A stretch of DNA of 32,642 bases from a virus (IMGVR_UViG_2778261268_000005); one strand, 5' to 3'; shown: positions 2,352 through 24,698, numbered from the stretch's first letter. The notes: a model not told the origin generated them from the letters alone. Numbers and translations are program-made.

Positions 2352-2617
2352 TACGAAACCTCAAACTGATTCGTACTTTTGCGAAAAACAAGTTTCCCCG
2401 GTGAGCAAGGCAGCGCCAGATTGATGTCGTAACTGTCAGGTGACGCGATCAAAGGCATGTATACAATCACGTCGCCTGAACTGTCTTTCAGTTCCAGGTA
2501 GTAACGATTTGCATACAGATTAAACGGAACGCGGGCGAATGTTTCATATTCTCCGATTCTGGCCGTGAACTGAAATGGTCCTCGCCCGTCAGGTTTGAAA
2601 GGAATTAACGTTGTCAT
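2351..2617 (-). CDS. hypothetical tail protein (88 aa)
   Basis: Translationally coupled ORF (ATGA overlap) inside the tail operon. Confidence 0.4.
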   Translation of the reverse strand: MTTLIPFKPDGRGPFQFTARIGEYETFARVPFNLYANRYYLELKDSSGDVIVYMPLIASPDSYDINLALPCSPGKLVFRKSTNQFEVS

Positions 2618-3282: not shown

Positions 3283-3285
3283 GGT

Positions 3286-5361: not shown

Positions 5362-5669
5362 CACAATACTCCTGCGGGATTTTTGAATTTGAGCAGCTCA
5401 CGAAACTGAGCTGCTGTTTTTACATTTAGGCCGGAATCTGCACAGATGTCTCTGAATCCGGCTCCGGCTGAGTAGTCGAGGATGTCGCTGATGACGTGTT
5501 CGCCGTCGCGCCAGAACTGGCGGCTGATTTCAATGTCGGCAATGAAGCGATCCATTCCGTAAGATTCAATAACGAGCATTGAGTGCTCCATACTCCATTG
5601 ACCACATCCATAGTCCCCTTCGCCTGCTCCGGTGAATTTATCGACGAGACGCATGTAAAAAAAATGAGC
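5361..5669 (-). CDS. -1 frame extension ORF of the tail assembly chaperone (GT-like C-terminal part of a frameshift product)
   Basis: Open in the -1 frame relative to the 205 aa chaperone, overlapping it by about 230 nt; begins just after a T-run slippery site and ends exactly at the tape measure start. Confidence 0.45.
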   Translation of the reverse strand, partial: AHFFYMRLVDKFTGAGEGDYGCGQWSMEHSMLVIESYGMDRFIADIEISRQFWRDGEHVISDILDYSAGAGFRDICADSGLNVKTAAQFRELLKFKNPAGVL

Positions 5670-6043
5670 TCACCCGCCACTTCATCCAAATCAATGATTT
5701 CACGCTCCAGCGCCATATCGAGAGGGATTGTGTCGTAGCCTTTACCCTCCACTGGGTAAACAAGATTTGCCAGGCGAATGACCTCATTAACAAGTGTATT
5801 ACGGACCCCTTTATCACCTTCCCAGATATTAGAATCACGCGAGATCCGCTCCAGCATCAAAAAAGCGATACGCGGACCCGCAACGACGCCAAGACCTTCT
5901 GAAAAAATGGCAGAAAAAGTTTTACTCAGAATGAAGAAATGCTCTTTAAACACCTCTTTGCTAATCGGCGTGGCATGGATCCAGCCATTATCCTTTTCTG
6001 TCCGGACAGGAATAATCAGGTTTAAATTTCGCGCGATTTTCAT
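5426..6043 (-). CDS. tail assembly chaperone (205 aa from ATG 6043; track start 6055 is GTG)
   Basis: Sits between tube and tape measure; ATG overlaps tube stop (ATGA); overlapped by a -1 frame ORF. Confidence 0.5.
   Translation of the reverse strand: MKIARNLNLIIPVRTEKDNGWIHATPISKEVFKEHFFILSKTFSAIFSEGLGVVAGPRIAFLMLERISRDSNIWEGDKGVRNTLVNEVIRLANLVYPVEGKGYDTIPLDMALEREIIDLDEVAGELIFFTCVSSINSPEQAKGTMDVVNGVWSTQCSLLNLTEWIASLPTLKSAASSGATANTSSATSSTTQPEPDSETSVQIPA
5657..5664 (-). other. putative -1 programmed ribosomal frameshift slippery run (TTTTTTTT on the coding strand, read as T TTT TTT in the chaperone frame)
   Basis: Homopolymeric heptamer at the point where the -1 frame opens (after a TGA at 5670-5672). 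Confidence 0.4.
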
Positions 6044-6483
6044 ACCAGATCCCACATTTCAGAGTTGATGTAATACGTACCAGTAATGGTGATGGCCACA
6101 CCCGGCTCGCCCCCGGCGAAGGTCATATCCTGCACGTTGGTGATCGCCGTGTTATAGATATCGAAGTCACCGAACACCGTGCTGTCGCTATACACTTTTG
6201 CGTCGCCGATCGTGGCATTCTTTTCCCATTGCGTCTTGAATTGTTTTCCCAGCGCCTGGCTACGCAGCAGATGAACACGCGCCTGTAAAATCATGTATGG
6301 CTGCGGCGACTGCACGGCTCCCGTCATAGCGGGTAAAAACTCCGTGATATTGCCCTGAAAGGACAATTCGACGCCTTCTTTTGCCAGAAAAGAGGCGGAC
6401 ACATTCAGTTCAGAATGGGAGGTAAATTTAACGCTGGCGCGAACCCGGTTAAGGGTGCCAACGGGGATCATTGGATTAGGCAC
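6040..6483 (-). CDS. tail tube protein (147 aa, GTG start with GAGGGA Shine-Dalgarno 7 nt upstream)
   Basis: Small ORF directly downstream of the sheath-sized gene and upstream of the chaperone pair. Confidence 0.5.
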   Translation of the reverse strand: MPNPMIPVGTLNRVRASVKFTSHSELNVSASFLAKEGVELSFQGNITEFLPAMTGAVQSPQPYMILQARVHLLRSQALGKQFKTQWEKNATIGDAKVYSDSTVFGDFDIYNTAITNVQDMTFAGGEPGVAITITGTYYINSEMWDLV

Positions 6484-6494
6484 GGTTCAGTCCC

Positions 6495-7832
6495 TCACGA
6501 AAGCTGCATTGTCACATTGATGTTAAAAATGATTTCGACAAATCCGCGCATCGGCGTATAGGAGGCCGAAAGGCCTGCATAACGCCCGATACCGTAATCA
6601 TTGGGATTAGTGTTGATATACTGGCGGAAAGGCACTGCATCGACGACAGGCTGACCGTTGACCAGGCCGTAAGATACGCCCGTATTGAACACCGCCTGTG
6701 CGACCTGCTGCAGACGGTCGATCCCGTCCTGGTTGTAGTAAAGCGGGTTAATTGGGTTATTGCTACCGTTGATCACCGTGTTGGCGAGCTGCATATCGAC
6801 ATTAATCTGCACCCAGTCCACGGAATACCAGTACGTCATATCGTTACCGTCACTGGTAACGCCTTTCACCAGAATCGTGTTGGAAATTCCCCCCTCAGCC
6901 CCCGTGTCGACGTAGTTAATATTCTGCTTCGTCATCGTGACCAGAATTGAATTTTTGCCCTTGTGGGCGTTTACCGCCTGTAGATAACGAAATGCCATCG
7001 GCGGCACCTTGTTGATTTCTGAAGGTGATGCGGAAACATAGTTCCACATTACGGCTGCTGCCGCGTTTGTCGCCGGGTACGTATCATCCGCCGTTGCAAT
7101 AACCGACTTAATACCGGCATAAGGCGAAACGTAATTCGTGTCGTCCGGCGTTTTCGTCAGCACGAAGAAATACTGCATCGCTTCGTTGGCGGTGTGGAGT
7201 TTTGCCAGACTGATAAATTCTGCGTCACCATCCCACCGCTGCGGCACCAGATACGCATAAAACCGCAGGAGCGGATCTTCCATATAAGCTTTCAGTGCAG
7301 CGATTTCCTTACTGACCCCGCCTTTCTGTACTCCCAGCTCCAGCAGGTAAATCCCAACTGAATTTCCCTGGGCAAAAAACGTGTTTACTGCCGTCACCAG
7401 ATTTTCACTGCCGACAATGGAAAACTGCCCCAGTGTCACTGGCGAACCGGAAAGCTGAGAATCAGCAATCGTCCAGGTCAGTGTTTTTTCATCCGTGACG
7501 GTAGCAGTATATTCGCCATTCCACGCGTCGGGCGAACACCCGGAAACAACAATTTTCACCTCAGAACTGTTTTCGCGTCGGATGTTGCTCCCTTCCGGAA
7601 GCGTCATCGTAACGGTGACGTTTGCCGCAGATTTTCCTGCGGCAGCCGCCGACAACGCAGCAATCGGATTTTTAACCAGATCGTTAATATCCTGATTGCT
7701 GGTGAGTAATACAGGCTTCCCCGGCTCATGAGTCGTGGAGCCAAACGAGAGAACCGCAGACATCTGCTGCAGATTCGAGGGTATGGCCCCGATGGTCTGG
7801 GACACATTCACCGTGACGATATTAAACCCCAT
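6495..7832 (-). CDS. contractile tail sheath protein (445 aa)
   Basis: Size and position immediately upstream of the tube, chaperone and tape measure genes; call is by synteny, not sequence. Confidence 0.5.
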   Translation of the reverse strand: MGFNIVTVNVSQTIGAIPSNLQQMSAVLSFGSTTHEPGKPVLLTSNQDINDLVKNPIAALSAAAAGKSAANVTVTMTLPEGSNIRRENSSEVKIVVSGCSPDAWNGEYTATVTDEKTLTWTIADSQLSGSPVTLGQFSIVGSENLVTAVNTFFAQGNSVGIYLLELGVQKGGVSKEIAALKAYMEDPLLRFYAYLVPQRWDGDAEFISLAKLHTANEAMQYFFVLTKTPDDTNYVSPYAGIKSVIATADDTYPATNAAAAVMWNYVSASPSEINKVPPMAFRYLQAVNAHKGKNSILVTMTKQNINYVDTGAEGGISNTILVKGVTSDGNDMTYWYSVDWVQINVDMQLANTVINGSNNPINPLYYNQDGIDRLQQVAQAVFNTGVSYGLVNGQPVVDAVPFRQYINTNPNDYGIGRYAGLSASYTPMRGFVEIIFNINVTMQLS

Positions 7833-8776
7833 TATTTAACCTCATATTTACAAATGACTTTTTCAATCAACTGCCGGGATATTTCCCGGGCGGTGCTCTG
7901 GTAGTAATTCACGTCAAAATCGACAATCTTTTTCTTCGCCAGAGCGTTGATTTCAACCTGTCCCGACTTTGCGTCCTGAACCACCGGAATATTGGTTACA
8001 CCAAACTTTTCCTCCTCCAGCGCCCTGTTCACCACCGAGTCGACAAGATCCAGCGCCATTTTGTTGCTGAATCCGTAAAGCGTCAGGCGAACCGAATCCT
8101 GGACGAGCTGGAATCGCTCACCACCGAAAACAACGGGAGCCATCTGCAAAGGAATACTGTTGCGAACATCCACCGCGATATACGGAGGGCGAAGGTTCTG
8201 CGGTACCAGGTAAGACGGATACACGGTCGCGGCATCTTTCATTTGCAGCCAGATCGGGATGCTGTTGGATATGATCTGCTCGTCGCTGATATCCTCCTCG
8301 CAGTCGATAATCTGGGAACGCATGGTTGGCAAAATCGCCATGCCGCGATAATGAAAAATACCCGACTGCTGATAGCGGCTCTCCATTCGAGAAAAAGCGA
8401 ACTGGACGCCGCCGTACTCACCGAGATAGATCGCATCGGGATTTTCCACATTAAAATCATCAACCTGCTGAACAGGCGTGAAAATAATGTTGTTCACATC
8501 CTTCGAGACAGACTCGTCCTGAATCGCAATAACCTGACGATGCAGGCTGCCTTTGATTTTCAGACGAGTTGGTGACTCAATATTCAGACGACACAGTTCA
8601 TCGCAACTGATGATTTCCGCATTAACCCAATAGACAAAACCATCCAGCGGCAGAACCTGCCGGACATAGAGCCTGAACGTGATTTCCTGGTCTGACGAGA
8701 TGGTTTCAACTGCGGATTTAAGAACGGACGAGAGCTGCGAACTGTGCTGTCCGGCTAATTCTTCAAGACTCGGCAT
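7832..8776 (-). CDS. hypothetical virion protein (314 aa), head-tail joining region
   Basis: Coupled ORF (TAATG) between head and tail modules. Confidence 0.4.
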   Translation of the reverse strand: MPSLEELAGQHSSQLSSVLKSAVETISSDQEITFRLYVRQVLPLDGFVYWVNAEIISCDELCRLNIESPTRLKIKGSLHRQVIAIQDESVSKDVNNIIFTPVQQVDDFNVENPDAIYLGEYGGVQFAFSRMESRYQQSGIFHYRGMAILPTMRSQIIDCEEDISDEQIISNSIPIWLQMKDAATVYPSYLVPQNLRPPYIAVDVRNSIPLQMAPVVFGGERFQLVQDSVRLTLYGFSNKMALDLVDSVVNRALEEEKFGVTNIPVVQDAKSGQVEINALAKKKIVDFDVNYYQSTAREISRQLIEKVICKYEVK

Positions 8777-9203
8777 TGTTATCTATCCACGCTATAAAGC
8801 TGCCCTTAAACAGGCCGCCATCTATGAATGACGGGCGCCGCTCCCCGGTATATTTGTCCTTAAGCCTTGAGTTAACACCCTGTAACGCAGCCTGGGTTGG
8901 GACCTGATTTCCGTTGATCGTCATTCCGGCCATTTCTTCGGTTTCAAGAAATATATGGAAAATCTTCCCGGTCCCTTCCAGAAAATGCTCGCCAGGTAGC
9001 GGAGCCTTATACTTGAAGTGATTGACCAACTGGTACGCCAGTTCAGTACCTGCCTCCTGGATAATCTCGTCCTTATGCATTTCCCAGAAGTGCGTAAAAA
9101 TTTCGTATCGCTCCTCGAGGTCACAGGCCACGTCAAACGTGGTTTTTCCCGGTTCGTCGCCGTAGTCATACGGCTGGTCGATAACCCCAAAACAAAGTTT
9201 CAT
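8763..9203 (-). CDS. hypothetical virion protein (146 aa from ATG 9203)
   Basis: ATG 9203 overlaps upstream stop (ATGA); track start 9218 is an in-frame upstream ATG. Confidence 0.4.
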   Translation of the reverse strand: MKLCFGVIDQPYDYGDEPGKTTFDVACDLEERYEIFTHFWEMHKDEIIQEAGTELAYQLVNHFKYKAPLPGEHFLEGTGKIFHIFLETEEMAGMTINGNQVPTQAALQGVNSRLKDKYTGERRPSFIDGGLFKGSFIAWIDNNAES

Positions 9204-9640
9204 GGCGTGTAACCCCATACCGTGCCCATCTGCATCAGCACCGCAACAACCTGTCGTCCATACGGATCCTGTAACATCTGCAAATCCAGCAAAGACAGAT
9301 TACTCAGCGCGTCGCTGATGGTGATCGAACCCGATGTCCCCTGGTCTGCTGCCGCGCTGACAAGCCCGGTAGCCAGTTTCCCAAGGTTGAGTTTTTTTCT
9401 CAGGTCGGCAAACCACGAGCCGGGAGCGAAATTCAGGAGAAATGAGGCGGCAGCGTTATAAACCGTTCGCACATAGATGATGGGTAAACGCTCCAGCCCC
9501 TGATCGTGAGGGATTAGCTCCATCGCAGACTGAAAGCAACATTCCAGTGTCGGATCATCGTCAGCAATAGCGTGAACCGGTACTTTCATGTCGTCACGAA
9601 CAAAGCGAATAAACCCCTCCAGTGACGGACGCAGGGTCAT
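9200..9640 (-). CDS. hypothetical virion protein (146 aa)
   Basis: TAATG coupling to upstream gene; head-tail connector region. Confidence 0.4.
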   Translation of the reverse strand: MTLRPSLEGFIRFVRDDMKVPVHAIADDDPTLECCFQSAMELIPHDQGLERLPIIYVRTVYNAAASFLLNFAPGSWFADLRKKLNLGKLATGLVSAAADQGTSGSITISDALSNLSLLDLQMLQDPYGRQVVAVLMQMGTVWGYTP

Positions 9641-10110
9641 TATTTTTTAACCTTAATATTTCGCTTTGTGCTGGGCGGATTTTCCTGTTCGGTGTTAACC
9701 GCTTCCCCGGTGATTTCCATTTCAATACCACCTGGTTGAGGTTTTTCGCCACTCTGAATCACTGCCTGATCCACTGCGTTATTCAGCGATACGGCGCTGG
9801 CTGCGAGAATTTCTTCTGACAGGGATTCCAGATTTTCCGTTTTCTGCTCCGCGCAATCCTCAATGCGACCAACGCTCACAGGTTTATCGATGGAATAGCA
9901 GATACCAGAAAAATTCTTGTCCACCTTGTCACAACGCTGGAATCCGTAAGGCTCATGCTGTCGGATGATGTGGTCGATAATATCGGACTGATTTTCGATC
10001 ATATGCTGACGTCCGGACGGAATTGTCACACCGAACGACTGCGTTTTTTCGGGGAGTTTGTAGTTGAACGTGTGCGGCTGACGTGAGCAGTTAGCGATGT
10101 AGAGCTTCAT
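9640..10110 (-). CDS. hypothetical virion protein (156 aa from ATG 10110; track start 10125 is TTG)
   Basis: First gene after the capsid gene; start moved to the first ATG. Confidence 0.4.
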   Translation of the reverse strand: MKLYIANCSRQPHTFNYKLPEKTQSFGVTIPSGRQHMIENQSDIIDHIIRQHEPYGFQRCDKVDKNFSGICYSIDKPVSVGRIEDCAEQKTENLESLSEEILAASAVSLNNAVDQAVIQSGEKPQPGGIEMEITGEAVNTEQENPPSTKRNIKVKK

Positions 10111-10167
10111 AAATTTTTCCCACAAAAAAGGGGAGCATTTAGCTCCCCGCGTTATCAGGTTGAACGT

Positions 10168-11196
10168 TTATGCGTATTTGGCAGACAACAGGGTGATCCC
10201 CTCAGGGCGGAAGTTCCAGCCCGGCGTCGCGCGCATGGTATACAACGTGGTCAGGCCACCATCCGGCATAGGGGATGGTATTTCCGTCGGCGCTGCCATA
10301 TCACAGAACATCACGTTGACGGCCTGCTGGTTAGGAACCAGCGTGGAGAAAATATTGGTGTTAATGGTATGACGCACTTCCGGAACCTCAATCGTCGGGT
10401 TCGTAACGATGATCAGGTCATTACCACCAGCGCCTTTACCGATCAGCGTGTCGTCCTGGCAGAAAATGATGTCGTCGCCTGTCGCCTTATCGGCGACATC
10501 TTTAACCATCGTTCCCACCGTTCCGGTACCACCACCAGGACGCTGATAACTGGTCAGCTCAACAATTCCTGTCCACTCCAGCGCCTTCATGAATCGCTGT
10601 GGACTCAGAATAACAGTCGTTAATGGCTGCCCCAGCAGCAACATGCGGGTTTTCTGGTCAGCAATCAGGCCAAGCATAAATTTAGCCATCTCGCCGGAAT
10701 CCCAGGTGGTGTACGAATCGTTACCTTTGCTGTCGTTGCCCAGATTCAGCGTCACTGCATTCGGGGAGTTGGTGATCCCTTCGTTATTCTTCGCTTCAAC
10801 ACCGTACAGCAGCATATTACGCAACATTTGAGCGTGTCCCTGGCGGTTAGCCAAGCGCAGGCCTTCAATCAGAGAATAGCCCCAGCGATCTGCTGCATCA
10901 GTATCGAGATAGCTGTATTGCGAGCGGGAAGAAATTCGATAAGTCATCATCCCGTCATAGCCACCAGAGATACTGGAAGACGGTAACTGGCCCGGCAGAG
11001 ACTGGCTGACCTGCGCCTGCGAGGTCATGCGCAGATATTTCTGATAGACCATCAAATCACTGGAACTGATTTTTACTGCCGGAGCACCACCAGCCAGGAC
11101 TTCAAACGCCCCGGAAGCCATGCTCTGTTGCACGATCATTTCCGGCAGCACCATTGACGGCGACACAATAGTAGTCGCAGGAGTAAATGCGCTCAT
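10168..11196 (-). CDS. putative major capsid protein (342 aa)
   Basis: Size and position downstream of the scaffold/protease gene; call by synteny. Confidence 0.5.
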   Translation of the reverse strand: MSAFTPATTIVSPSMVLPEMIVQQSMASGAFEVLAGGAPAVKISSSDLMVYQKYLRMTSQAQVSQSLPGQLPSSSISGGYDGMMTYRISSRSQYSYLDTDAADRWGYSLIEGLRLANRQGHAQMLRNMLLYGVEAKNNEGITNSPNAVTLNLGNDSKGNDSYTTWDSGEMAKFMLGLIADQKTRMLLLGQPLTTVILSPQRFMKALEWTGIVELTSYQRPGGGTGTVGTMVKDVADKATGDDIIFCQDDTLIGKGAGGNDLIIVTNPTIEVPEVRHTINTNIFSTLVPNQQAVNVMFCDMAAPTEIPSPMPDGGLTTLYTMRATPGWNFRPEGITLLSAKYA

Positions 11197-11210
11197 TAAT
11201 TAATATCCCC

Positions 11211-11828
11211 TTAAATTAAAAACAGGCCGCACGGTTTGCCGATTTCCCAGACAACGTTACCGCCATCCTCTTTTTTCACCGTCAGGTTTCCGTCAACTGA
11301 AACCATCAGCAGCTTAATATCCACTTTCGGATTAGTGCCGGGTGATCCCGAATAAACATCAATCATGTTTTTCGTCAGATCCCACACAAAACCACAGGCA
11401 GCAACGGTGTTATTTCCATCAGCCAGCGCAACAACTTCTGCACTGACAGGGAGAGGAATGCGGGCACCTGAACCGACGCGGTAATAGTGAACAAAGCCAC
11501 CCGCGAGATATAACGGCACCGGATTATCCGGCGTGGTAATGCCATGAAATGCCTGATTAAAGACAGTAAAGGCGTTACAGGCGTCATTCGTGGCCTGCTT
11601 GATAACCGCCCCGTTAACGCTGTCTTTCGCGGGAGCGATGCACTCGATAACACCGACACCACCCCATACCGGTTCACTGATTTTGCTGTCCAGTCGTCCG
11701 GAGCAAAGTTGCAGACGAATTGCCGGATCATCCTGCGCATCCCCCTGCATCAGCCCACGGGATTCGACGTTAAAAAGGCCACCAAATGCTCCACGGTTTT
11801 TAAACGGATGAAAGTTAATATCAGCCAT
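11211..11828 (-). CDS. hypothetical head protein (205 aa), between scaffold and capsid genes
   Basis: ATG overlaps upstream stop (ATGA). Confidence 0.4.
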   Translation of the reverse strand: MADINFHPFKNRGAFGGLFNVESRGLMQGDAQDDPAIRLQLCSGRLDSKISEPVWGGVGVIECIAPAKDSVNGAVIKQATNDACNAFTVFNQAFHGITTPDNPVPLYLAGGFVHYYRVGSGARIPLPVSAEVVALADGNNTVAACGFVWDLTKNMIDVYSGSPGTNPKVDIKLLMVSVDGNLTVKKEDGGNVVWEIGKPCGLFLI

Positions 11829-13143
11829 TGTTCAGGCTCCCTTGAGTGTTAATTTTTGCCAGACGACGCCCCGGAATTTTGAAGGCACTCAGCCAGACGT
11901 TCGGATCGCCCTGATATTCAGTAATGCGACGCCCGGCTTCATCGTTGCGGATACGTTTATGCAGTTGCCCCTGCGTACTCATCATTTCTTTTTCGATGGA
12001 CTGACGGGCGGCACTGAAAATTGCGTCCTCAAGCACAGCCAGAGTTGCAGAATCCGCAATCGCGCGAATATTGACGTCCTTATGTGCCGGAGAGTGTTTC
12101 TGCATAGCGATAAGCGCACGCTTGCGGTAGTCCAGCGCATTTTCTCCAGAAAACGGTGCTGGCGCGTTTTTACCGCAGGCACTGAATGCGGAGTCGGCTT
12201 TTGCCTGTGCTTCGGCCAGGGCAGAGTCATTGCGTTCTTTTTCTGCCTCCTCGTCAGCTTTACGCTGTTCTTCCGCTTCGGAATCAGCCTTTGCTTTCTC
12301 CTCAGCGTCTTTGGCTGCCGCCTCGTCAGCTTTGGCTTTTTCTTCCGCCTCCTTTGCCGCAGCTTCATCAGCTTTACGCTGTTCCTCTGCGGCTTCATCG
12401 GCTTTGGCCTTTTCTTCGGCCTCTTTTTTCGCCTGCTCTTCGGCATCCGCCCGCGCTTTGTCCCGCTGTTCCAGTGAGTCCATGCGCGTGACTACTCCAT
12501 CGATTTTCTGATTAATTCCGCTCATGGCATCGTTCACCACCCCCTGTAACAGGGCCTGGAGTTCTTCTTTTTCCATCTCAATTTCACCTGTATTTGTCAC
12601 TTCAACCCCTGCGGGGATCCGGTCTTTATCCCACACGCCCAGCGAGCCGTGGTCTTTCGTCACCAGGGCGATGTGATCAACAAGGAAAGGAACGCCTTCG
12701 ATTAAAAAATTGGTGTCACCTTCCTGTACTTCCACATTTCCTGATGTGCTGTTGAACACCACCGACGGGCTTGTCGAAACATCCCCCTCAGTGATTTCTT
12801 CAACAATGCTCTGGAGGTAAACGCGGCACACCGCCCATACCTCATCACCCCGGATATACGGCAGCATGACGCTACCGACGATCCGCGATTTAAAGTCCTC
12901 CTCCGTCAGAACTGCGTCGTCAGGATGGTTTGCGATAACCGGAAGGCCATTGCATCGCCTTAAAAACTCCTCGTTAAGATAGAGCTTTGGATCACGCCAG
13001 ACGTGCTCTTTCAGCCCGGCGCGATAGGCAAGCCCGGTTCCGGTTATTCGCAAATTCACCAGCCACATGTTGGAGAATTTCACCGGAGACGGTACGGTTC
13101 CGTCCCTGATGCGTTCTGCCACTTCAAGCTCGGTTAAACTCAC
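11821..13143 (-). CDS. putative prohead scaffold/protease protein with central Ala/Glu/Lys-rich coiled-coil repeat (440 aa, GTG start)
   Basis: GGAGAAGGG Shine-Dalgarno upstream of GTG; repetitive KADEAAxEQ units typical of scaffold proteins. Confidence 0.5.
   Translation of the reverse strand: MSLTELEVAERIRDGTVPSPVKFSNMWLVNLRITGTGLAYRAGLKEHVWRDPKLYLNEEFLRRCNGLPVIANHPDDAVLTEEDFKSRIVGSVMLPYIRGDEVWAVCRVYLQSIVEEITEGDVSTSPSVVFNSTSGNVEVQEGDTNFLIEGVPFLVDHIALVTKDHGSLGVWDKDRIPAGVEVTNTGEIEMEKEELQALLQGVVNDAMSGINQKIDGVVTRMDSLEQRDKARADAEEQAKKEAEEKAKADEAAEEQRKADEAAAKEAEEKAKADEAAAKDAEEKAKADSEAEEQRKADEEAEKERNDSALAEAQAKADSAFSACGKNAPAPFSGENALDYRKRALIAMQKHSPAHKDVNIRAIADSATLAVLEDAIFSAARQSIEKEMMSTQGQLHKRIRNDEAGRRITEYQGDPNVWLSAFKIPGRRLAKINTQGSLNNG
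12230..12450 (-). repeat. imperfect in-frame tandem repeats encoding the (E/A/K)-rich coiled coil of the scaffold protein
   Basis: Repeated gcttt/ctttgg/cttcgg motifs on the plus strand; protein shows repeated EEKAKADEAA units. Confidence 0.6.
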
Positions 13144-13483
13144 GTTTGCCCTTCTCCGTTAAAAATTCGTCGGGTAGTTTCTGAGGGGCGTAGATCGGCA
13201 GTGCATCGCAACTGCAATAAACCTCCTCCCCAGCAGCAGTGATTTCGTCATAAAAACCATATACGGGCTTAATCAGCCCCTGCTCCAGCGCCCACGAATT
13301 GCGGAGGAGATAAATTTTCTCGTCGCGCTCTTTGTGGTCCTGTCGGTATTTGTAGCCCGGACGCCGCCAGTTAGAATGCCAGCGCAGAGCAATCGCTCCA
13401 CTCTGAACAGCCAGCAGATACTTAACGTTGCTTGCCAGCTTATGCCCCTGGTCAATTGCCACCCGGCGACTGATAAAATCCAT
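13124..13483 (-). CDS. small head-morphogenesis-region protein (about 120 aa) or 3' remnant of a larger head gene; start uncertain
   Basis: Track ORF 13124-13858 reads through three intrinsic terminators, so only the part downstream of the 13596-13624 terminator can be coding; candidate starts ATG 13483 or GTG 13540, both with poor Shine-Dalgarno. Confidence 0.3.
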   Translation of the reverse strand: MDFISRRVAIDQGHKLASNVKYLLAVQSGAIALRWHSNWRRPGYKYRQDHKERDEKIYLLRNSWALEQGLIKPVYGFYDEITAAGEEVYCSCDALPIYAPQKLPDEFLTEKGKREFNRA

Positions 13484-13595
13484 ATCCTTCACGGACTTAT
13501 GAAAACCGGACTTCACTTCCCAGCGATCAATTTCGCTCACCCCGTCAGGCGGAATGGACGTAACCGGATAAGGGTTCAGACATGCTTTTTCCTCC

Positions 13596-13624
13596 CACAA
13601 ATAAAAAAGGGCCGCCAGCGGCCC
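13596..13624 (-). terminator. intrinsic terminator (GGGCCG-CTGG-CGGCCC followed by TTTTTTATTT on the minus strand)
   Basis: Hairpin plus T-run read directly. Confidence 0.6.
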
Positions 13625-13708
13625 GTAAAAACACCCTGTCAAAGGCACCCGCAGATGCCTTTTGTGTGGTGTTATCTGATGTGATGTGCGCCGGGCGTGG
13701 CGCGGATA

Positions 13709-13775
13709 TGAAAAAGGCCCGCCGGAGCGAGCCATAAAAAACTGAATAAAAAAAAACCGCCAGGTGCGGCGGTTA
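13709..13775 (-). terminator. tandem pair of intrinsic terminators, copy A of a duplicated ~65 bp module
   Basis: Two hairpins each followed by a T-run on the minus strand; near-identical module at 14389-14453. Confidence 0.55.
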
Positions 13776-14028
13776 AGGATGTATTTCCGGGCTTGGCTTA
13801 GTATATGACCAATCACAGTTTTGTTTTTGTCGATGTTTACAACATCAGAATAATGCATTTAAAGTAGTAAAAATATTTGCTAATAATGCATTATTCCGAT
13901 GGTGTAAAAAATGGCACTGGAACCGCAACGAATATCACTCATTACAGAACAGGGGGCGCAAGGAACCATAAAAAACACCCTACATATATTATGTCAGTGC
14001 CTAACACAATCTCGCCTTAGTTACTGTT

Positions 14029-14101
<73 letters not shown>

Positions 14102-14388
14102 ATACTGTGCTGGCCCCCGGAATAACACGAATTACCAAGAGAGCCCGCACTGGTCTTTCCGGTGGCAAACAGCACCCCTGCTAACATAAAAGATAAACAC
14201 CTTCCAGACGCAAAAATACTAACAACTGTTTTTCAGATATCCAAAATATATTTGGTTTTTATTTTTGAAAATATGTATACATATGTATCATAAATATACA
14301 AGCCATATCATAACCGAATTAAAAATCTTTAGTTATCTCTTTTGCCGTCTGATCACCACCCACCGGCAGCTGAGAATTCCGGCACACA

Positions 14389-14453
14389 ATGAAAAAGGCC
14401 CGCCAGGGCGAGCCATAAAAACTGAATAAAAAAACCGCCCGGGGCGGCGGCTA
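14389..14453 (-). terminator. tandem pair of intrinsic terminators, copy B of the duplicated module
   Basis: Same two-hairpin architecture and flanking sequence as copy A, with point differences. Confidence 0.55.
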
Positions 14454-14815
14454 AAACGATAAAAGGACACAATATTATAATGATTATTGGGTTTGGGGCA
14501 TCGGGTGCCTCCCGAAGTATTCCACTTTACGTGGATACTGTGGTTTCCCGCTAAACCGACTCTATAAACCACCCTCGCACTGAGGAACGCCCCAATTCAT
14601 GTTTTCCGACACAGAGATGGCGCATCACTGGTTACTCCACGCTAAATCCTGCTTCCTTTCGTGGGCAATGCGCCATTTCTGTGTCATAAAAAATACAGCA
14701 CTGAGTCTGTAACCGATCTCCATTACAGAATGAGGGACGATAAAGGTATTAAAGAGATCTGTTCCTCACGAAAACCGCCAGTGCTGTAAAAACTTGTCCA
14801 AAAAACAATGAAGTT

Positions 14816-14884
14816 GCGGAGAACAGGAATCGAACCGGCATTACCAACCTAAGGCTGATGTAATAACCACTATACGATACCTGC
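14816..14884 (-). pseudogene. tRNA-like element, probably a degenerate paralogue of the tRNA-Gly gene
   Basis: 5' half nearly identical to the Gly tRNA (GTATCGTATAGTGGTTATTAC) and a TTCGATTCC T-loop, but anticodon, T and acceptor stems do not pair properly. Confidence 0.4.
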
Positions 14885-15406
14885 ATATAGAGCAGGCCTC
14901 CGTAACCACAATAATGACACTGATACTGATAACAGCCCTTCATTATGATTAAACGGATGCCAGCAATGACCCGCAAGACAGCGGGTAACACCCCTGTGAA
15001 CAGAAACTTGCTGCCTTTCGGGTCGAGAGTAATATTACCGATAATTTATATGACATCAAAAACTAATTAGTTTTCATATTTAAACATATGTATAAATATG
15101 TATCAGACGCATACAATTTATGTTATTTCATCCAGACTTCTGATTTCTCACAGGAAATTGCGAAAAAAAAACAACATAAAAATGAACAAATTGGGAGTAC
15201 GCTAACTCCGTTGTCGCAATAAATCACAGTAAGCTCTTCAGAAATAACAGTTCACAAGACTTACATCAACAGTAGTTTTTGTAATGATTAATGTTAACTG
15301 TAGCGTTGAAAAGAAAAGTTTTGACGAAATATGGTGAACTAACAGAGCCTAACGAATAGCCCTATTACGCCGAGCTAATAGCGCTGCCAGCTAAACTTGC
15401 ATGGAA

Positions 15407-15483
15407 TGGTCCGCCACCGAGGACTCGAACCTCGCACAATCAACTTAGAAGGTTGATGCTCTATCCCGATGAGCTAGTGGCGG
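15407..15483 (-). tRNA. tRNA-Arg(UCU), CCA encoded
   Basis: Acceptor CCGCCAC/GTGGCGG, anticodon loop CTTCTAA (anticodon TCT), T-loop TTCGAGT, 3' ACCA. Confidence 0.8.
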
Positions 15484-15485
15484 AA

Positions 15486-15561
15486 TGGTGGCCCTTGCTG
15501 GATTTGAACCAGCGACCTGGCGATTATGAGTCGCTCGCTCTCACCACTGAGCTAAAGGGCC
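15486..15561 (-). tRNA. tRNA with CAU anticodon, ileX/ileZ-like (Ile2 if lysidine-modified, otherwise Met), CCA encoded
   Basis: GGCCCTTTAGCTCAGTGG...ACTCATAATCGC...GGTTCAAATCCAGCAAGGGCCACCA; closely resembles E. coli ileX as recalled; 2 nt from the Arg tRNA. Confidence 0.8.
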
Positions 15562-15701
15562 GATTGAAAAATATTGACTGAATCAGTTTAGCGCTGTAAT
15601 CCACCCAACACAACCGTTTAAATCTTGTATGTCAGCTACAATCAAGTAAAAATATCTGAACAACAAGCAGAAAAGTCTATATCCCGGTTACTCATAATGT
15701 T

Positions 15702-16415
15702 TTAGCGCACTTTGACTATATTAATTTCAAATTCATCTGTATGTGCGCTATTAAGTATAACGAAATTCGTACTACCGTGCCTGTACGATTTTGATAAAAC
15801 CAAGCGATCACCATAGCGAGCAAGAACGTAATACCAAACGCTCTCATAGTGAAGTGTCTGATACTCCTTCTTAAACTGAGGTTTGTACCATCCAGCAATA
15901 AGCGAAAACAACCAGAAATAGAGCATGAATCCGGCCATAACACACTCAATCTTGTGATGCCGAATAAAAGACACTTCAGAAATACATTTAACGTAAATAA
16001 ACTTCCTGCCCGTTCTGACGAACATGGTAATTATTAATGCCACAATAGCGCATAAAACCAATGCATCTGGTACAAAGTGCTGATGAATTACCGAAAACTC
16101 CAGAGCCGGAGGAACAAAAAGCAACAATATCGCAAGAAAAAGCCTGACAGCACTCAAATCCTTCATATTATTTTTTTGTTTGATCCCCAGAAAGAAGACA
16201 ATACCGATCCCCCATCCAGCCAAGAATATAACGATAACTGTGACAGCATAAAACAGGCTTCTGGCCACATCATCAACACCGGCCCCGACAACCCACCATG
16301 GAAAGCCATAGTAAAAGGAAGTACCCCAGCCATAGAAATAAGCACTTCCCCACCCAAGACACCCCATGTAAGCAACAAAAAGTGAAGAATTCCTGAGCAG
16401 AGTACTGTCACTCAT
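15702..16415 (-). CDS. hypothetical polytopic membrane protein (237 aa from the second ATG; about 5 hydrophobic segments); late-region cargo gene
   Basis: AT-rich ORF between the Q terminator and the tRNA cluster; AGAGG Shine-Dalgarno 6 nt before ATG 16415; W/F/G/Y-rich hydrophobic helices; no family recognised. Confidence 0.6.
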   Translation of the reverse strand: MSDSTLLRNSSLFVAYMGCLGWGSAYFYGWGTSFYYGFPWWVVGAGVDDVARSLFYAVTVIVIFLAGWGIGIVFFLGIKQKNNMKDLSAVRLFLAILLLFVPPALEFSVIHQHFVPDALVLCAIVALIITMFVRTGRKFIYVKCISEVSFIRHHKIECVMAGFMLYFWLFSLIAGWYKPQFKKEYQTLHYESVWYYVLARYGDRLVLSKSYRHGSTNFVILNSAHTDEFEINIVKVR

Positions 16416-16453
16416 AATCATCCTCTAACAACTTAACAACATTAACTCGCTTT

Positions 16454-16482
16454 ACATAACAAAGAAAATTCCATGTAGTCAA
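16454..16482 (-). promoter_or_regulatory. candidate sigma70 promoter for the membrane-protein gene (-35 TTGACT, 17 nt spacer, -10 TTATGT)
   Basis: Hexamers read on the minus strand about 35 nt upstream of the start codon. Confidence 0.3.
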
Positions 16483-16749
16483 GAGGGTTCAGGAAAGGAG
16501 AAACTAAAATTGCATAGCCATCATAAAGTTTAACGTACCAACCTGCTTTTTCAGGTATAAAAAAACCAACCTCAAGGAAAGGCTGGCATAAGAAAAGTAA
16601 ATAATGATTCCACTAAAACTTCGTCGCAGGAGGAATCCTGTGCCGCTTAACATACATAAAATTTAGACAACTAACAATCACAATATAAAATATTTAAGAT
16701 TTCGTTATCAAAATACCAGTCAGTAGAGCGCCAGCTCTCCCGTAGATGG

Positions 16750-16783
16750 TTAAACATAACAACAAAACCCGCTCAATGGCGGG
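16750..16783 (-). terminator. intrinsic terminator about 85 nt downstream of Q (tR'-like position)
   Basis: CCCGCC-ATTGA-GCGGG hairpin followed by TTTTGTTGTTATGTTT on the minus strand. Confidence 0.55.
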
Positions 16784-16868
16784 TTCTGGTGAAGTTCATG
16801 CGATTAATTCGCCACGCGATACAGCTTTGCGAAGCGTATCGGAATTGAAGCAGTTTATGCGTAAGAAA

Positions 16869-17411
16869 TCAAGCCATTTTTTGAGCAAATGATTCTCGCA
16901 TGGGAATGTATAGCGCACACTCAGCAACAGCCAACCAATTAGCAATTCGCTTTTCGCATGTGCTAAAACAACACTCTGGATACTGTTCGTTTAGTAACCC
17001 GGCCATCCTTCTCTTACTCATTCCTCGCCCCTCATACCGTTGTCGGAGGATGCTAATCAATCCCGGATGTTCTGCCAGCACCTCACTTATAACCCGATCA
17101 ATACATAACGCCTCTGCATCAGTACAATGCGCCAGCCAGCTCTTTTGCTTACCATTGATCATCTCTCGCAAAAACGCTTCCAGCTCAGGTTTCTCTATTC
17201 CCGCTTTTTTCATTCTGCGCAGGGCTTCATTGATGGCTGTTTTCGTCAATTTTTTGGATGCCAACAACTGATTGAACATATTTCCTGACCTGCCACCACC
17301 AATATATGACCAGCGCCCCCACATACGTAGTTTTCCCTGAATCCAGACACTTTCCAGCGTAGTGAGACGAAGGTGTTCTCCGCTTTTTCCTGTATTCGTT
17401 GGGTAAATCAT
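16869..17411 (-). CDS. late-gene antitermination protein Q (180 aa)
   Basis: Recalled similarity to lambdoid Q proteins of E. coli prophages; position upstream of the late region; ATGA coupling to the DUF1364 gene. Confidence 0.75.
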   Translation of the reverse strand: MIYPTNTGKSGEHLRLTTLESVWIQGKLRMWGRWSYIGGGRSGNMFNQLLASKKLTKTAINEALRRMKKAGIEKPELEAFLREMINGKQKSWLAHCTDAEALCIDRVISEVLAEHPGLISILRQRYEGRGMSKRRMAGLLNEQYPECCFSTCEKRIANWLAVAECALYIPMRESFAQKMA

Positions 17412-17698
17412 AAATATCCCTCCTTTCTCCAGATTTCTTGTGTGCGAAAAACACCTTCTGCATGCATCAGGCGTAATTCTTCTTTGGTGTAATCACTGGT
17501 TTTTACCCGCCCGTCGATTAAATCGTGGCACGATCTACAGGCAATCGCTGCCTGCATATCGTGTGGTTTTGCCGCTGTTCCGCACGTCCCCGCCAGTCGG
17601 TAATGCGCCAGCACAGAAGTTTCGGGATTGTGATTGCAGTAGCCAGGAATTCTGACGGTGCACATCTGCCCCCGCGCCGCTTTACGTAAATCCACCAT
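17408..17698 (-). CDS. DUF1364 / YbcO-like protein (96 aa, Cys-rich putative metal-binding nuclease)
   Basis: Recalled similarity to DLP12 YbcO (VRIPGxCNxNPETSVLAH...ACxxCHD motifs); nin-region position next to Q. Confidence 0.7.
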   Translation of the reverse strand: MVDLRKAARGQMCTVRIPGYCNHNPETSVLAHYRLAGTCGTAAKPHDMQAAIACRSCHDLIDGRVKTSDYTKEELRLMHAEGVFRTQEIWRKEGYL

Positions 17699-18297
17699 TA
17701 CGCAAACTCCAGTAACTGTGCGACCACATTTTCGACTTCCTCCGGAGAGGAAAATTTACGGAACAGGATCCAGTTCCACAGCACATTCAGTACAGATTTA
17801 TAAACCTGCTGAAACTCGGTTTCGTCCATATTCGCAAAAGCGATGGATTTCGCCCGGCGTCCACGGCTACCGTCCGGATAAAAATGCTCGGTGTAAAATC
17901 CGGCCTGAATGGTTATCCATTCGCGAAAAGCGTCAAATGACTTGAGTAAGGCCGTATCCCGGGTTCTGCGAGTCGCAACGGTGTTAAGGTATTGCTCTGC
18001 AGCATCACTAAGGGCTGGCGTATGTTCCCGACCTACTGATTCGCACAGGAAATCAACGAAACCGGACACCAGTTCTCGTTCGCGAGGCGTGATCACCCCA
18101 CCGACCGGAGTCCAGTAATCGAATCCCAGTTGCAGGAGTTTGAAAAAACGCTTGTGGAATGAGTAGTTACGCACACGCTTAAAGTCTGCGTGTATCCACT
18201 CACCTATTTTGATTTGATGCAAAAAATCGCAACTCTCCGGCGTCGCCGGGAGAAGTAATCCGGAAGAGGTTTGTTTGACCAGTTGTATATGCGCCAT
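17698..18297 (-). CDS. DUF1367-like nin-region protein (199 aa from ATG 18297; track start 18309 is TTG)
   Basis: GGAGA Shine-Dalgarno 5 nt before ATG 18297; family assignment from memory is tentative. Confidence 0.5.
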   Translation of the reverse strand: MAHIQLVKQTSSGLLLPATPESCDFLHQIKIGEWIHADFKRVRNYSFHKRFFKLLQLGFDYWTPVGGVITPRERELVSGFVDFLCESVGREHTPALSDAAEQYLNTVATRRTRDTALLKSFDAFREWITIQAGFYTEHFYPDGSRGRRAKSIAFANMDETEFQQVYKSVLNVLWNWILFRKFSSPEEVENVVAQLLEFA

Positions 18298-18356
18298 TGC
18301 TGTCTCCAATGGCGCTGTAGGTTGCCAGTTGTTCAGGCTGGCTTACGAATTATAAC

Positions 18357-18530
18357 TCATTCCCGAATCACCTTGAAACCGAGCCTTTCAAGATATTCAA
18401 TGAATGCCTCGATAGATAAAATTACATGATTATCAGGGATTAACGTTGCGTAGATAACTTCCCCATTCTCAACGCGCACAGCAAAGAGGCCATTTTCACT
18501 AAAAATTTCACGTAATTCTTCAATTTTCAT
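18357..18530 (-). CDS. small acidic hypothetical protein (57 aa), first gene of the operon leading to Q; below the ORF-track length cutoff
   Basis: ATG with GGAAGGA Shine-Dalgarno 8 nt upstream; lies between the hok terminator and the DUF1367 gene. Confidence 0.45.
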   Translation of the reverse strand: MKIEELREIFSENGLFAVRVENGEVIYATLIPDNHVILSIEAFIEYLERLGFKVIRE

Positions 18531-18644
18531 CAACAGAATCCTTCCAGATAAATAGCCCCCCCCTGTTCGGGGTCCATCCCTCTTCTCCCTGCGCGCTACT
18601 TAAGTATTTTTGATTCTATTCCGGCATCGTCCATAACTTCAAAC

Positions 18645-18681
18645 GTATTGAAAATAAAAACAAAAACCCGCCGAAGCGGGT
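18645..18681 (-). terminator. intrinsic terminator at the 3' end of the hok transcript
   Basis: CCCGC-TTCG-GCGGG hairpin followed by TTTTTGTTTTTATTTT on the minus strand, about 70 nt after the hok stop. Confidence 0.6.
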
Positions 18682-18750
18682 TAAGTGCGGGTGCGTTGAA
18701 GATGCCTGACACATCATAGGCGGCGAGGGATTTCTCCCTCGCCTGGTCTC

Positions 18751-18906
18751 TTACTCCTCAGGTTCGTAAGCTGTGAAGACAGCGACCTCCGTCTGGCCGG
18801 TTCGGATTCGTACCTCGCAGAGGTCTTTCCTCGTTACCAGTGCCGTCACTATGACGGTTAAACAGATGACGATCAGGGCGATTAACATCGCCTTTTGCTG
18901 CTTCAT
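18751..18906 (-). CDS. hokD: Hok/Gef-family type I toxin (51 aa); an in-frame upstream start at 18963 gives a 70 aa Mok-like form
   Basis: Translation MKQQKAMLIALIVICLTVIVTALVTRKDLCEVRIRTGQTEVAVFTAYEPEE matches HokD/RelF as recalled; structured leader and 3' terminator. Confidence 0.85.
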   Translation of the reverse strand: MKQQKAMLIALIVICLTVIVTALVTRKDLCEVRIRTGQTEVAVFTAYEPEE

Positions 18907-19116
18907 AGCCTGCTTCTCCTTGCCTTTCGGCACGTAAGAGGCTAACCTACATTTGTGAGACATAGATTGGGCCTCAGATTAATGTTAAGCGTCTTGCAGG
19001 ACGCGTAATGTTAACTGGGGCTTTTCTCTATCTGCCTTTGGTGTTCATGCCCGAGGCAGATAGCCTCAAGCACCCGCAGCAATTCTACTTAACTCTCCTT
19101 TTCCCGCAAACCGTTT

Positions 19117-19200
19117 TTATCCCCAGCGGCAAATCGAATACACCACCAGCGCCACCGCCATCGCAATTCCTACCGTGGTGAATGCCTCAGGCCGGGTCAT
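19117..19200 (-). CDS. candidate 27 aa hydrophobic peptide (MTRPEAFTTVGIAMAVALVVYSICRWG), coupled to the DUF551 gene stop
   Basis: ATG overlaps the upstream TGA (ATGA); single predicted transmembrane segment; no other support. Confidence 0.25.
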   Translation of the reverse strand: MTRPEAFTTVGIAMAVALVVYSICRWG

Positions 19201-19901
19201 TGATTCACCTCCTGCGGCGGTTCTGGTAGCGGCATCCAGTGAGTTGAGCTCTCTACTTCGACGCCGTCTTTGTCTACAAAAGCCATCTTATTCCCGCCAC
19301 GAGTGGGGCAAAAAACCTTATCCCAGGAACCGGGGAATACATTCCCGAGATCATCGAGAAGAATCACATCGCAATATTCAGCAGGAACTGCATCACTACA
19401 GCTTATCCAGCCAGCCGGAGTTCCCGGAGAGCTGGTTGACGTTTCCGAGATTTCCCGAAAATTGTTGGTTGACGAATTCTTACTTTCCCGAAAGTTTTCG
19501 GCCTGAAGCATGGCGACACGGCAGGCGTTCCAGCCATCAGCATATGTTTCAGTTACACCGTCGAGATGGCAGGTAAGCAAATCCATTTCATCAGGCACTA
19601 CCATCGCTGGCGGCGCTGCGTAAAGCGGTGTTATTTCTGCCCGAAAATCACCTACTTTATGCAGTCGCACCCACCGTTCGATTTCTGCTTTGTCAGAATT
19701 CATAAGGGTGAACGTATTACATTCATGGTTAATTTGCGTGAAGGTTGCCTTCCACGCCACCGGCTCTGCTTCCAGTGATGCCAGTGCAATTTTGAATAAC
19801 TCGCCCTCTACCTGCGCCATCCCTGAATTTGAGTGGCATTTCGCAATCGCTATTTTTAATTTGGCTTCTTCGATTAATTGCTCTTTGGTTAATTCAGTCA
19901 T
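19197..19901 (-). CDS. DUF551-domain phage protein (234 aa)
   Basis: C-terminal region with the ...THWMPLPEPP motif characteristic of DUF551 proteins, as recalled. Confidence 0.55.
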   Translation of the reverse strand: MTELTKEQLIEEAKLKIAIAKCHSNSGMAQVEGELFKIALASLEAEPVAWKATFTQINHECNTFTLMNSDKAEIERWVRLHKVGDFRAEITPLYAAPPAMVVPDEMDLLTCHLDGVTETYADGWNACRVAMLQAENFRESKNSSTNNFREISETSTSSPGTPAGWISCSDAVPAEYCDVILLDDLGNVFPGSWDKVFCPTRGGNKMAFVDKDGVEVESSTHWMPLPEPPQEVNQ

Positions 19902-20031
19902 TTTTCATTACCGCCCTTTCAGGCGGCCTCCTGATGTTCTGAGGGTGCAGAAATCCCTCCGGTTAAGGATTTAATAAAATTCACTTCTGATTTAAATTTT
20001 CAGTATTTTGTTGTCAGGTGGTTTATCGCCT

Positions 20032-20343
20032 TTATGCTTCAGTCTTATTTCTCAGCCATACACAAACAGGACCATCTTCAGTGTCATGAATGGAACCAAT
20101 GAACCAGCCTTCACCTTCCGGGCGCTCCGGTTTCCAAGAGGCAATATCGGGACCATCTGCGTCCAGATTAAAATCATCTTCATCCATAGTTCTGATGGTC
20201 CATTGAAGATTATTTTCCTCCATCCATGCGTTAAACTCTTCCGTTGAAATATGTTCTCTACCATCACAGAATTTTTCATATTCAGGATGCGTCCAGCAGC
20301 CATATTCATCACGTACTACTGGTATTTCTTTAATTTCATTCAT
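20032..20343 (-). CDS. hypothetical acidic protein (103 aa), last gene of a coupled four-gene cassette
   Basis: ATG overlaps the upstream stop; Trp/Asp/Glu-rich; no family recognised. Confidence 0.5.
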   Translation of the reverse strand: MNEIKEIPVVRDEYGCWTHPEYEKFCDGREHISTEEFNAWMEENNLQWTIRTMDEDDFNLDADGPDIASWKPERPEGEGWFIGSIHDTEDGPVCVWLRNKTEA

Positions 20344-20590
20344 TTCTGTTCTCCCACGTTTTCAGACTTTCACCACAGAACGGACAAAATGAAACCCGCA
20401 CTGGTAATTTAGAAAATTCACCGGAACGCAACATCACCAAATCATGGTCGCGAGTTAAATTCTCATTCCAGATTTTGTATATCAGCAGACCTTTTCGCGT
20501 CGTGTATTCAGCATCATGCTCAAGGGCTTTTGCCAGTACCGCACATGGTTCTATCTGATTGCTATTAACCTGACATTTTGATTCGCTCAC
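20336..20590 (-). CDS. hypothetical protein (84 aa, GTG start) with a C-terminal Cys cluster (CPFCG), possible zinc ribbon
   Basis: GTGA overlap with the upstream stop; no internal ATG before residue 53. Confidence 0.45.
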   Translation of the reverse strand: MSESKCQVNSNQIEPCAVLAKALEHDAEYTTRKGLLIYKIWNENLTRDHDLVMLRSGEFSKLPVRVSFCPFCGESLKTWENRNE

Positions 20591-21009
20591 AGCATCACCT
20601 CCTGAAATTCCCCCTGATAAAACGCCAGCACTCGCTGCATAACCTCACTCTTCCGGCACTCGCGACAGATTATGTTCTGACGCCTGTCGTAGCGGCGTAT
20701 TTCTCCGTCAGGTAATGACCTGATAAGGTCCGGATCAACCACAGCCGTTTTCTTCACCTTTGCCCTCGATAGTTTTTTGCGGGCGTTTTGCCAGTCCTTA
20801 CGAGCCTGTTCAGAGGGAAATAGCCCGTAGCCGGAGTTATATACATCGCCACTGGCAACCAGCTCTCTGGCGAGAACGCTCATTAAATATCTTGTCGCAC
20901 CTGTCTTAGCTTCAAGTTGTCGTAACGTCTCGCGCCCATTCTGGCGCACGAGTTCAACAACCTGCCCCTTAATTTTTTCCCGCTCTTCTTGTGTAAATAC
21001 TTTTGCCAT
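20587..21009 (-). CDS. hypothetical protein (140 aa from ATG 21009; track start 21024 is TTG) with an N-terminal helix-turn-helix-like segment and a CRECRK Cys pair
   Basis: GGAGG Shine-Dalgarno 5 nt before ATG 21009. Confidence 0.5.
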   Translation of the reverse strand: MAKVFTQEEREKIKGQVVELVRQNGRETLRQLEAKTGATRYLMSVLARELVASGDVYNSGYGLFPSEQARKDWQNARKKLSRAKVKKTAVVDPDLIRSLPDGEIRRYDRRQNIICRECRKSEVMQRVLAFYQGEFQEVML

Positions 21010-21024
21010 AAGCGCCTCCGGCAA

Positions 21025-21786
21025 TCACTTTTCCGATACAACACAGCGGGAAGAATCAGTAATCTGGCGAACAATATCCCGGTGCTTGTTCAACTCCCGC
21101 AGCGCGGCGCAGACACGCTCCCACTTCTGGACATGGCTTTTCGCCCGACGCAGTTTGCGGTTTGCCAGATGCAGCGATGGCAAAATCAAATCATCCGCCC
21201 GCGTTTCGGTAAACGATGGCAACGACTGCACAATGTCCGCTACAGTATCTGTTTTAATTTCTTCCTGTGTTGCAGCCTCCTGTACTGGTAACGCAACACC
21301 TGCGGGCTGAGGAAAAGCCTTACCATCAGTTTCCGCTACCGATGCTGCTTTCGGCTCTGCTGGTAAATTATCGCCCGGTATGCAGTAACGAAATTTACCG
21401 CCCTGATTTACGCGAATCAGACGACCTTTGCTGATTGCCATTGCCAGCGTTGAAGCCACTTTGCGTGATGTGGTACCAAACAATGTAGCCAGTTCATCCG
21501 CCGTTTGTGGTCCGCGTTGTTCAATCGTCGCGGTTAAATCGCACTCTGAGATTTTCGCTACTGTCGCCGTGCTGGTTTCTTCCGGCTGTTCTTCTGGCGC
21601 TGGCTGTTCCTGCTGAACGTTGTTATCAGCCACACGCCAGGTGTATGCGCTTTTATCAACGAAGCCAGCCTTTTTCAGTTCCCACAGCTCGTTCAGTACT
21701 TCTTCACGACTGATATCAAGTCGCGCAGCCAGCTCTACCGACGTGGCTTTTCCCATCGCTTTCAGTGCGTCAAAAACAGTCTCCAT
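21025..21786 (-). CDS. hypothetical protein (253 aa) with two winged-helix-like segments, a low-complexity acidic linker and a basic C-terminus
   Basis: ORF 20 nt downstream of the DnaC-like gene; two HTH-like motifs ([15 protein letters not shown] and [16 protein letters not shown]). Confidence 0.5.
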
Positions 21787-21806
21787 AAATTTCCTCCCGG
21801 TAAAAA

Positions 21807-22553: not shown

Positions 22554-22559
22554 GGTCTG

Positions 22560-23348: not shown

Positions 23349-23425
23349 TTGTTTTCACCTTGTAACGCTCGCAGCGTTACATTTAACTGATACCGAACAA
23401 AACAATCCGGCACGATTAATTTCAA

Positions 23426-24107: not shown

Positions 24108-24211
24108 AAGGGTCACCTTAGTAATGTTCGCCAAAATATTAACTATACTAATTTAAATGATCAATACTTATATCAGTTTGAGATTATGAGCTGTGTTCAT
24201 AAGATGGTGGT

Positions 24212-24676: not shown

Positions 24677-24698
24677 CCCCCACTACCTCGTAACTAAA

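Follow-up and report, generated by a model that had tools for sequence, protein, structure and literature searches.

The cryptic prophage Rac of Escherichia coli K-12 carries intR, ralR/ralA, recET, kilR and the ydaSTUV early region, and is defective by loss of late genes. Defective prophages arising by such deletions are common and well understood. Among phage records, a Rac prophage with an intact late region is Rac-SA53 (KU052037.1), which bears LT-IIa enterotoxin genes and whose late genes run in the order Q, eplBA, holin1, holin, endolysin, eltIIaAB, small terminase, large terminase, rac41, rac42, 'TolA', rac44 and rac45. Another intact prophage lies at the Rac site of RM11911, an environmental Shiga toxin-producing E. 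coli (STEC) O45:H16 strain (PMC7285328); literature mentioning RM11911 does not discuss its Rac-site prophage by name. Here we compare these with a 32,642-nucleotide stretch of viral DNA (IMGVR_UViG_2778261268_000005), which we call the window and always take at its full length. It holds a Rac-type lambdoid prophage whose late operon depends on Q and whose tail is contractile (myovirus-type). The explanation that best accounts for its gene content, and in which we have high confidence, is that this prophage was rendered defective by one deletion of ∼7.73 kb.

The junction between the late leader and the head genes

Deletion apart, window positions 1–27801 differ from the RM11911 Rac-site prophage by five substitutions and two single-base indels (∼99.97% identity). 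Window 7292–13565 aligned with positions 1–6275 of RM11911 segment L003 at 99.968%, window 13559–27801 with L003 13998–28239 at 99.972%, and window 1–8180 with the adjoining RM11911 DNA (L005 8180–1) at 99.976%. Between window positions 13565 and 13566, 7,729 bp of RM11911 (L003 6276–14004, which is NZ_CP044313.1 497885–505613) is without a counterpart. The deletion junction carries a 4-bp microhomology at 13562–13565, reading AACC on the plus strand and GGTT on the gene strand; a three-way base comparison of the flanks gave a match of six of seven bases, as CGNAACC. The switch of parentage falls within AACC according to a three-way alignment, and the BLAST coordinates agree. An earlier note on this DNA had proposed, among other explanations for a head module that begins abruptly, a deletion that left a defective prophage; alignment with the intact RM11911 prophage now fixes the breakpoints of such a deletion to the base.

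Left of the junction, 13124–13565 (minus strand) encodes residues 132–277 of a 277-residue head-morphogenesis protein, a rac42 homologue. These residues are identical to residues 132–277 of the RM11911 protein (146/146). The remnant matched PHROG 324 'head morphogenesis' (E = 3.6e-25) at profile positions 196–345 only, the full-length RM11911 protein matched the same family at E = 4.2e-36, and Pfam gave no family for either. What survives is the C-terminal 146 residues out of 277, without a start codon of their own, and 13124–13565 is a pseudogene fragment. The small open reading frame (ORF) here is thus not an intact conserved head gene with its own start, which the earlier note had named as the finding that would speak against its view.

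Directly right of 13565 the sequence runs GGGAGG-aaaaagc-ATGTCTGAACCCTTATCCGGTT, the ribosome-binding site (RBS) and first seven codons of holin 1. This holin stub spans 13562–13596 on the minus strand, with the GGGAGG at 13596–13591, the ATG at 13583–13581 and codons 1–7 reading MSEPLSG. The RM11911 holin has the N-terminus MSEPLSGSGT and matches PF16931 (Phage_holin_8), and holin1 of Rac-SA53 starts the same way. Holin codon 7 is fused out of frame to head-morphogenesis codon 132. Owing to this frame mismatch, translation from the holin ATG and comparison of frames gave an accidental 12-codon frame, MSEPLSGYVHSA followed by a stop (13545–13583, minus strand).

The 244-codon ORF at 13124..13858 on the minus strand, which first drew attention to this region, is present as described, and its part 5' of 13565 is a chance open frame across the holin leader. 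It had been held that this ORF could not be real 5' of ∼13590; the upstream part is indeed spurious, but the true boundary is 13565. The small ORF had also been said to lack a good RBS. It has none because the remnant lost its own start, but a strong GGGAGG and an ATG are present all the same, out of frame and belonging to the holin. We considered the ATG at 13583, with its strong RBS, as a start for the remnant itself and rejected it: it lies out of frame with the remnant, runs into a stop after 12 codons and is the start of the holin.

The first intact head gene encodes a 440-aa DUF2213 protein (11821–13143, minus strand; PF09979), which weakly matched PHROG 2229 and 12864, families of head-maturation proteases; it is probably a scaffold/prohead protease. 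The gene starts with GTG at 13143, after GGAGAAGGG, and shares 20 nt with the end of the remnant, an overlap annotated identically in RM11911.

The window has only truncated forms of both junction genes, so the event is a deletion there and not an insertion in the relatives. It is very recent, because only seven differences separate the window from RM11911 in 27.8 kb, and private to the window sequence, because the junction is absent from the collections searched (see below). It is an ordinary, prophage-inactivating deletion.

Genes within the missing segment

The lost genes were identified in RM11911 from the annotation of the Prokaryotic Genome Annotation Pipeline (PGAP) together with Pfam. 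In order, the block comprises two holins, an endolysin, a TET-associated glycosyltransferase (TAGT), the small terminase, the large terminase, the portal and the 5' half of the head-morphogenesis gene. Holin 1 (Phage_holin_8) is deleted except for its first 7 codons. Deleted entirely are holin 2 (Phage_holin_3_7), the M15 endolysin (Peptidase_M15_4), a 60-aa ORF downstream of the endolysin, a ParB/ynaK pseudogene, the 310-aa TAGT (PF20691, E = 1e-33), a 69-aa ORF, the small terminase subunit (Terminase_2), the large terminase subunit (Terminase_6N) and the 478-aa portal (L003 6612–8048; Phage_portal_3, PF06381, E = 1.6e-12). The 277-aa head-morphogenesis gene has lost codons 1–131.

Neither Pfam nor comparison with the annotated RM11911 DNA revealed a holin, endolysin, terminase or portal gene in the window, in agreement with what had been noticed from the sequence, and in RM11911 these genes occur only within the segment that the window lacks. 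Past 27801, where the alignment with RM11911 ends, the rest of the window carries RecE, RecT and integrase. The only lysis-like domain in the window is a transglycosylase domain in a 692-aa tape-measure-like tail protein (3286–5364).

Two observations concern the contents of the block in RM11911. RefSeq/PGAP names the 478-aa protein at the portal position 'anti-CBASS protein Acb1 family protein', whereas Pfam assigns it to Phage_portal_3; the 'Acb1' name is likely to mislead annotation-based screens. The TAGT gene adjoins the ParB/ynaK-like gene just 5' of the small terminase gene (L003 10667–11599 and 12126–12383). The ParB-like gene, a pseudogene in RM11911, shows a ParB_N domain in other contigs, and the pair looks like a DNA-modification module that was lost from the window with the deletion.

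Relatives and searches for the junction

RM11911, RM13745 and RM13752 (O45:H16; NZ_CP044313.1 and relatives) share with the window its gene order, cargo gene, tRNAs, leader and head and tail genes but, unlike it, hold the 7,729-bp block. Rac-SA53 likewise has a late operon collinear from Q and a head/tail module 95–98% identical to that of the window; it differs in its toxin cargo (eplBA and eltIIaAB) and in keeping its holin, endolysin, terminase and portal block intact. In a megablast search of phage records, window 12900–13565 was 98.6% identical to the rac42 and 'TolA' genes of Rac-SA53, and the match ended at 13565, inside rac42. The 'TolA'-annotated protein is the counterpart of the DUF2213 protein of the window.

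E. coli C5 has a comparable intact order. Of the 8.3-kb intact segment, at least 80% was covered by one match in each of 56 complete E. coli genomes, including E. coli W. Contigs encoding an identical 440-aa DUF2213 protein showed the intact order in every case read (24/24), in three arrangements, all of which place the small terminase, large terminase, portal and 277-aa genes upstream of the DUF2213 gene.

A 451-nt query that included the junction gave no match across it among 5,426 complete E. coli genomes. Instead the query split at its positions 213–216, the left part matching rac42 homologues and the right part matching the leader and the start of a 'putative holin'. No phage record covers the junction, and an exact 35-mer of it was absent from GTDB species representatives, IMG/VR and JGI metagenomes. 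A junction that occurs in no other public sequence searched, and only once, is also what would be expected of an assembly or sequencing artefact, in which a chimeric read or a collapsed assembly had disguised a prophage that is really intact. We consider this improbable. The breakpoints share only 4 bp, far below assembler overlap or k-mer length; an overlap so short could not mislead an assembler, and therefore junction-spanning reads must exist. The breakpoints also have no repetitive sequence to cause a collapse, and microhomology junctions are typical of real deletions by illegitimate recombination.

Still less likely is that the lysis, terminase and portal genes were relocated, to a place past the left edge of the window or elsewhere in the genome, in an unusual order. 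The first of these had been suggested in the earlier note, but past window position 1 RM11911 has a type I restriction-endonuclease-like gene, baseplate J, tail-fibre and fibre-assembly genes and a few small genes, after which the tail region gives way to the host genes uspF, ompN and nifJ. No terminase, portal or lysis gene was found in the RM11911 DNA beyond that edge. Relocation would also leave both truncations at the junction, so that holin 1 and the head-morphogenesis gene at least are destroyed, and in all relatives examined the block sits between the holin leader and the DUF2213 gene. There is no positive evidence for a move.

In RM11911 the type I restriction endonuclease gene (L005 8330–9490) stands between baseplate genes, next to a 115-aa ORF (window 1–348). 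It looks like a cargo or defence gene added to the tail module.

Proposed origin and consequences

Deletion from an intact Rac-type prophage probably occurred by RecA-independent illegitimate recombination at the 4-bp repeat, through replication slippage or microhomology-mediated joining. RecA-independent illegitimate recombination at short repeats is an established deletion mechanism. After induction, Q-modified RNA polymerase would start at the late promoter downstream of Q and continue across the cargo gene, the tRNAs and the leader with its terminators. From the holin RBS just a 12-residue peptide would now be made, and the DUF2213, capsid and tail genes would probably still be expressed from their own starts, perhaps with less translational coupling. 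Lacking portal and terminase, the prophage would form no DNA-filled heads, and lacking holin and endolysin it would be unable to lyse its host. We infer that the element is a cryptic prophage that does not propagate and is very early in its decay.

Several considerations weigh against this account. The evidence is that of the window alone, and transfer of the 7.7 kb to another part of the source genome is formally possible. The junction is known from assembled sequence and not from sequencing reads. Late-gene expression and the failure to make phage are points that we infer, and RM11911 is a close relative and not a demonstrated ancestor.

There is a slim chance that the element is instead kept as a non-lytic one, with its Q-dependent tRNAs and membrane cargo protein still expressed, and that on induction it makes capsid-like shells or free contractile tails, which only lysis of the cell by a co-resident lambdoid prophage would release. 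If true, the window would be an early snapshot of prophage domestication. Least credible of all is a domesticated particle producer, tailocin-like (as the earlier note had also proposed) or forming empty capsids, and maintained by selection: all tail genes and the capsid and scaffold genes are open, and one tail gene recorded as frameshifted in RM11911 has its full reading frame here, but the scaffold/protease and capsid genes are kept, unlike in tailocins, no lysis cassette exists for particle release, the junction is an out-of-frame accident, and a private, recent deletion, seen nowhere else searched and accompanied by seven changes in 27.8 kb, indicates neither the time nor the spread that selection would leave.

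Taken as a prophage made defective by one deletion, the element belongs with deletion derivatives of known type, and nothing in it is biologically new. It does provide a base-resolved example of a first decay step, in which lysis, packaging and portal functions were lost together by one microhomology-mediated deletion and the rest of the prophage stayed essentially identical to an intact relative. For annotation, no gene should be called at the 244-aa ORF, and the prophage deserves the label 'defective'. The junction might be used as a strain-specific marker.

Late operon from Q to the holin leader

The late-gene antiterminator Q (16869–17411, minus strand) matched PHROG 753 'anti-termination protein Q-like' (E = 1.3e-77), and its RM11911 orthologue is annotated as a DUF1133 protein. 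Q marks the start of the leftward-reading late operon. Downstream of it is a sigma-70-like site at 16711–16682, and then terminators at 16587–16565. Between Q and the tRNAs lies a 239-aa membrane-protein cargo gene (15702–16421, minus strand; PHROG 1521, function unknown), also present in RM11911. From ARAGORN, Rfam and the RM11911 annotation together come three tRNAs, each on the minus strand: one with anticodon CAT at 15486–15561, tRNA-Arg (TCT) at 15407–15483 and tRNA-Gly (TCC) at 14029–14101. The abrupt start of the head module after cargo gene and tRNAs, as first noticed, was confirmed, with the features in the order and at the coordinates reported.

The CAT tRNA is called tRNA-Met by ARAGORN, as against tRNA-Ile for its RM11911 counterpart in PGAP; it is similar to the ileZ-type tRNA that Stx phages and other lambdoid phages carry.

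A terminator scan of 12800–17500 gave 12 sites, all on the minus strand, compared with 4.9 ± 2.5 in shuffled sequence. Terminator-like hairpins with T-runs at 13774–13755, 13733–13716 and 13624–13609 (minus strand) all fall inside the 13124–13858 ORF, and the scan thereby bears out the three intrinsic terminators that the earlier note had placed there. Window 13562–13800 corresponds to the leader before an intact holin, at 100% identity in RM11911, RM13745, RM13752 and VG48B2. We regarded the terminators as a possible abnormality and rejected the idea: they are found 5' of an intact holin in relatives, in four of them with 100% identity. The terminator-rich stretch before 13565 is the normal late leader of the holin gene, which Q-modified polymerase would read through.

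Part of this leader belongs to a degenerate tandem duplication at 13708–15116 (minus strand), whose module consists of a tRNA and twin terminators. The paired copies are 14816–14846 with 14031–14061 (77%), 15057–15116 with 14242–14301 (78%) and 14389–14454 with 13708–13776 (83–89%). The terminator scan placed the sister copy of the twin terminators at 14452–14397 (minus strand; repeat families D3 and D5). In the upstream copy of the module sits a decayed tRNA-like sequence (14815–14884, minus strand), whose Rfam score of 31.8 bits compares with a gathering score of 29 and for which ARAGORN made no call.

Retained head, tail and early genes

Leftward from the DUF2213 gene come a 205-aa protein and then a 342-aa major capsid-like protein (10168–11196, minus strand), which matched PHROG 6671 at E = 8.9e-184 and, more weakly, PHROG 264 'major head protein' at 6.9e-9. 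A 445-aa tail sheath lies left of the capsid-like gene, followed by the tape-measure-like gene, with baseplate genes in the left part of the window. The sheath, baseplate, tape-measure, capsid and scaffold genes are all still open.

A −1 programmed frameshift of the tail-assembly-chaperone (G/GT) type may operate at 5361–6055 (minus strand). A slippery TTTTTTT at 5663–5657 lies inside a 205-aa ORF situated between a 147-aa ORF (after the sheath) and the tape-measure gene, and the −1 frame is open from the slippery site to 5361, abutting the tape-measure start at 5364.

Both indels that distinguish the window from RM11911 (window 9142 and 26314) fall in genes flagged 'frameshifted' in RM11911, a 146-aa tail gene and a small early gene. 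At both places the window keeps its reading frame intact; in RM11911 either errors of sequencing or mutations peculiar to the strain may account for the frameshifts.

The early region is of Rac type. RecE, RecT and the integrase were located by Pfam at the right end of the window (integrase domains, RecT, Exonuc_VIII), with RalA found by Rfam; kilR, ydaT, ydaV and recE are annotated in the matching, ∼99.97%-identical RM11911 DNA. The integrase is of the IntR-like tyrosine type.

Two antitoxin RNAs were also located. RalA small RNA, the antitoxin of the RalR/RalA system, is at 30908–31086 (minus strand; RF02694, 218.5 bits), and sok, whose partner hok is annotated in RM11911, is at 18901–19075 (minus strand; RF01794, 117.7 bits). 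The sok and RalA RNAs are typical of Rac-type prophages.

Comparison with known defective elements

R-type tailocins such as the R-pyocins, which are conserved from strain to strain, have no capsid or scaffold genes and bring a lysis cassette of their own. Like them, the window element has contractile-tail genes without terminase or portal; unlike them, it keeps head genes, has lost its lysis genes and shows an arrangement private to itself. Rac of K-12 has the same type of early region and is likewise defective through lost late genes. But in K-12 Rac nearly the whole lysis and structural region is gone, whereas the window element is minus one 7.7-kb block only, which would place it at a much earlier stage of decay than K-12 Rac.

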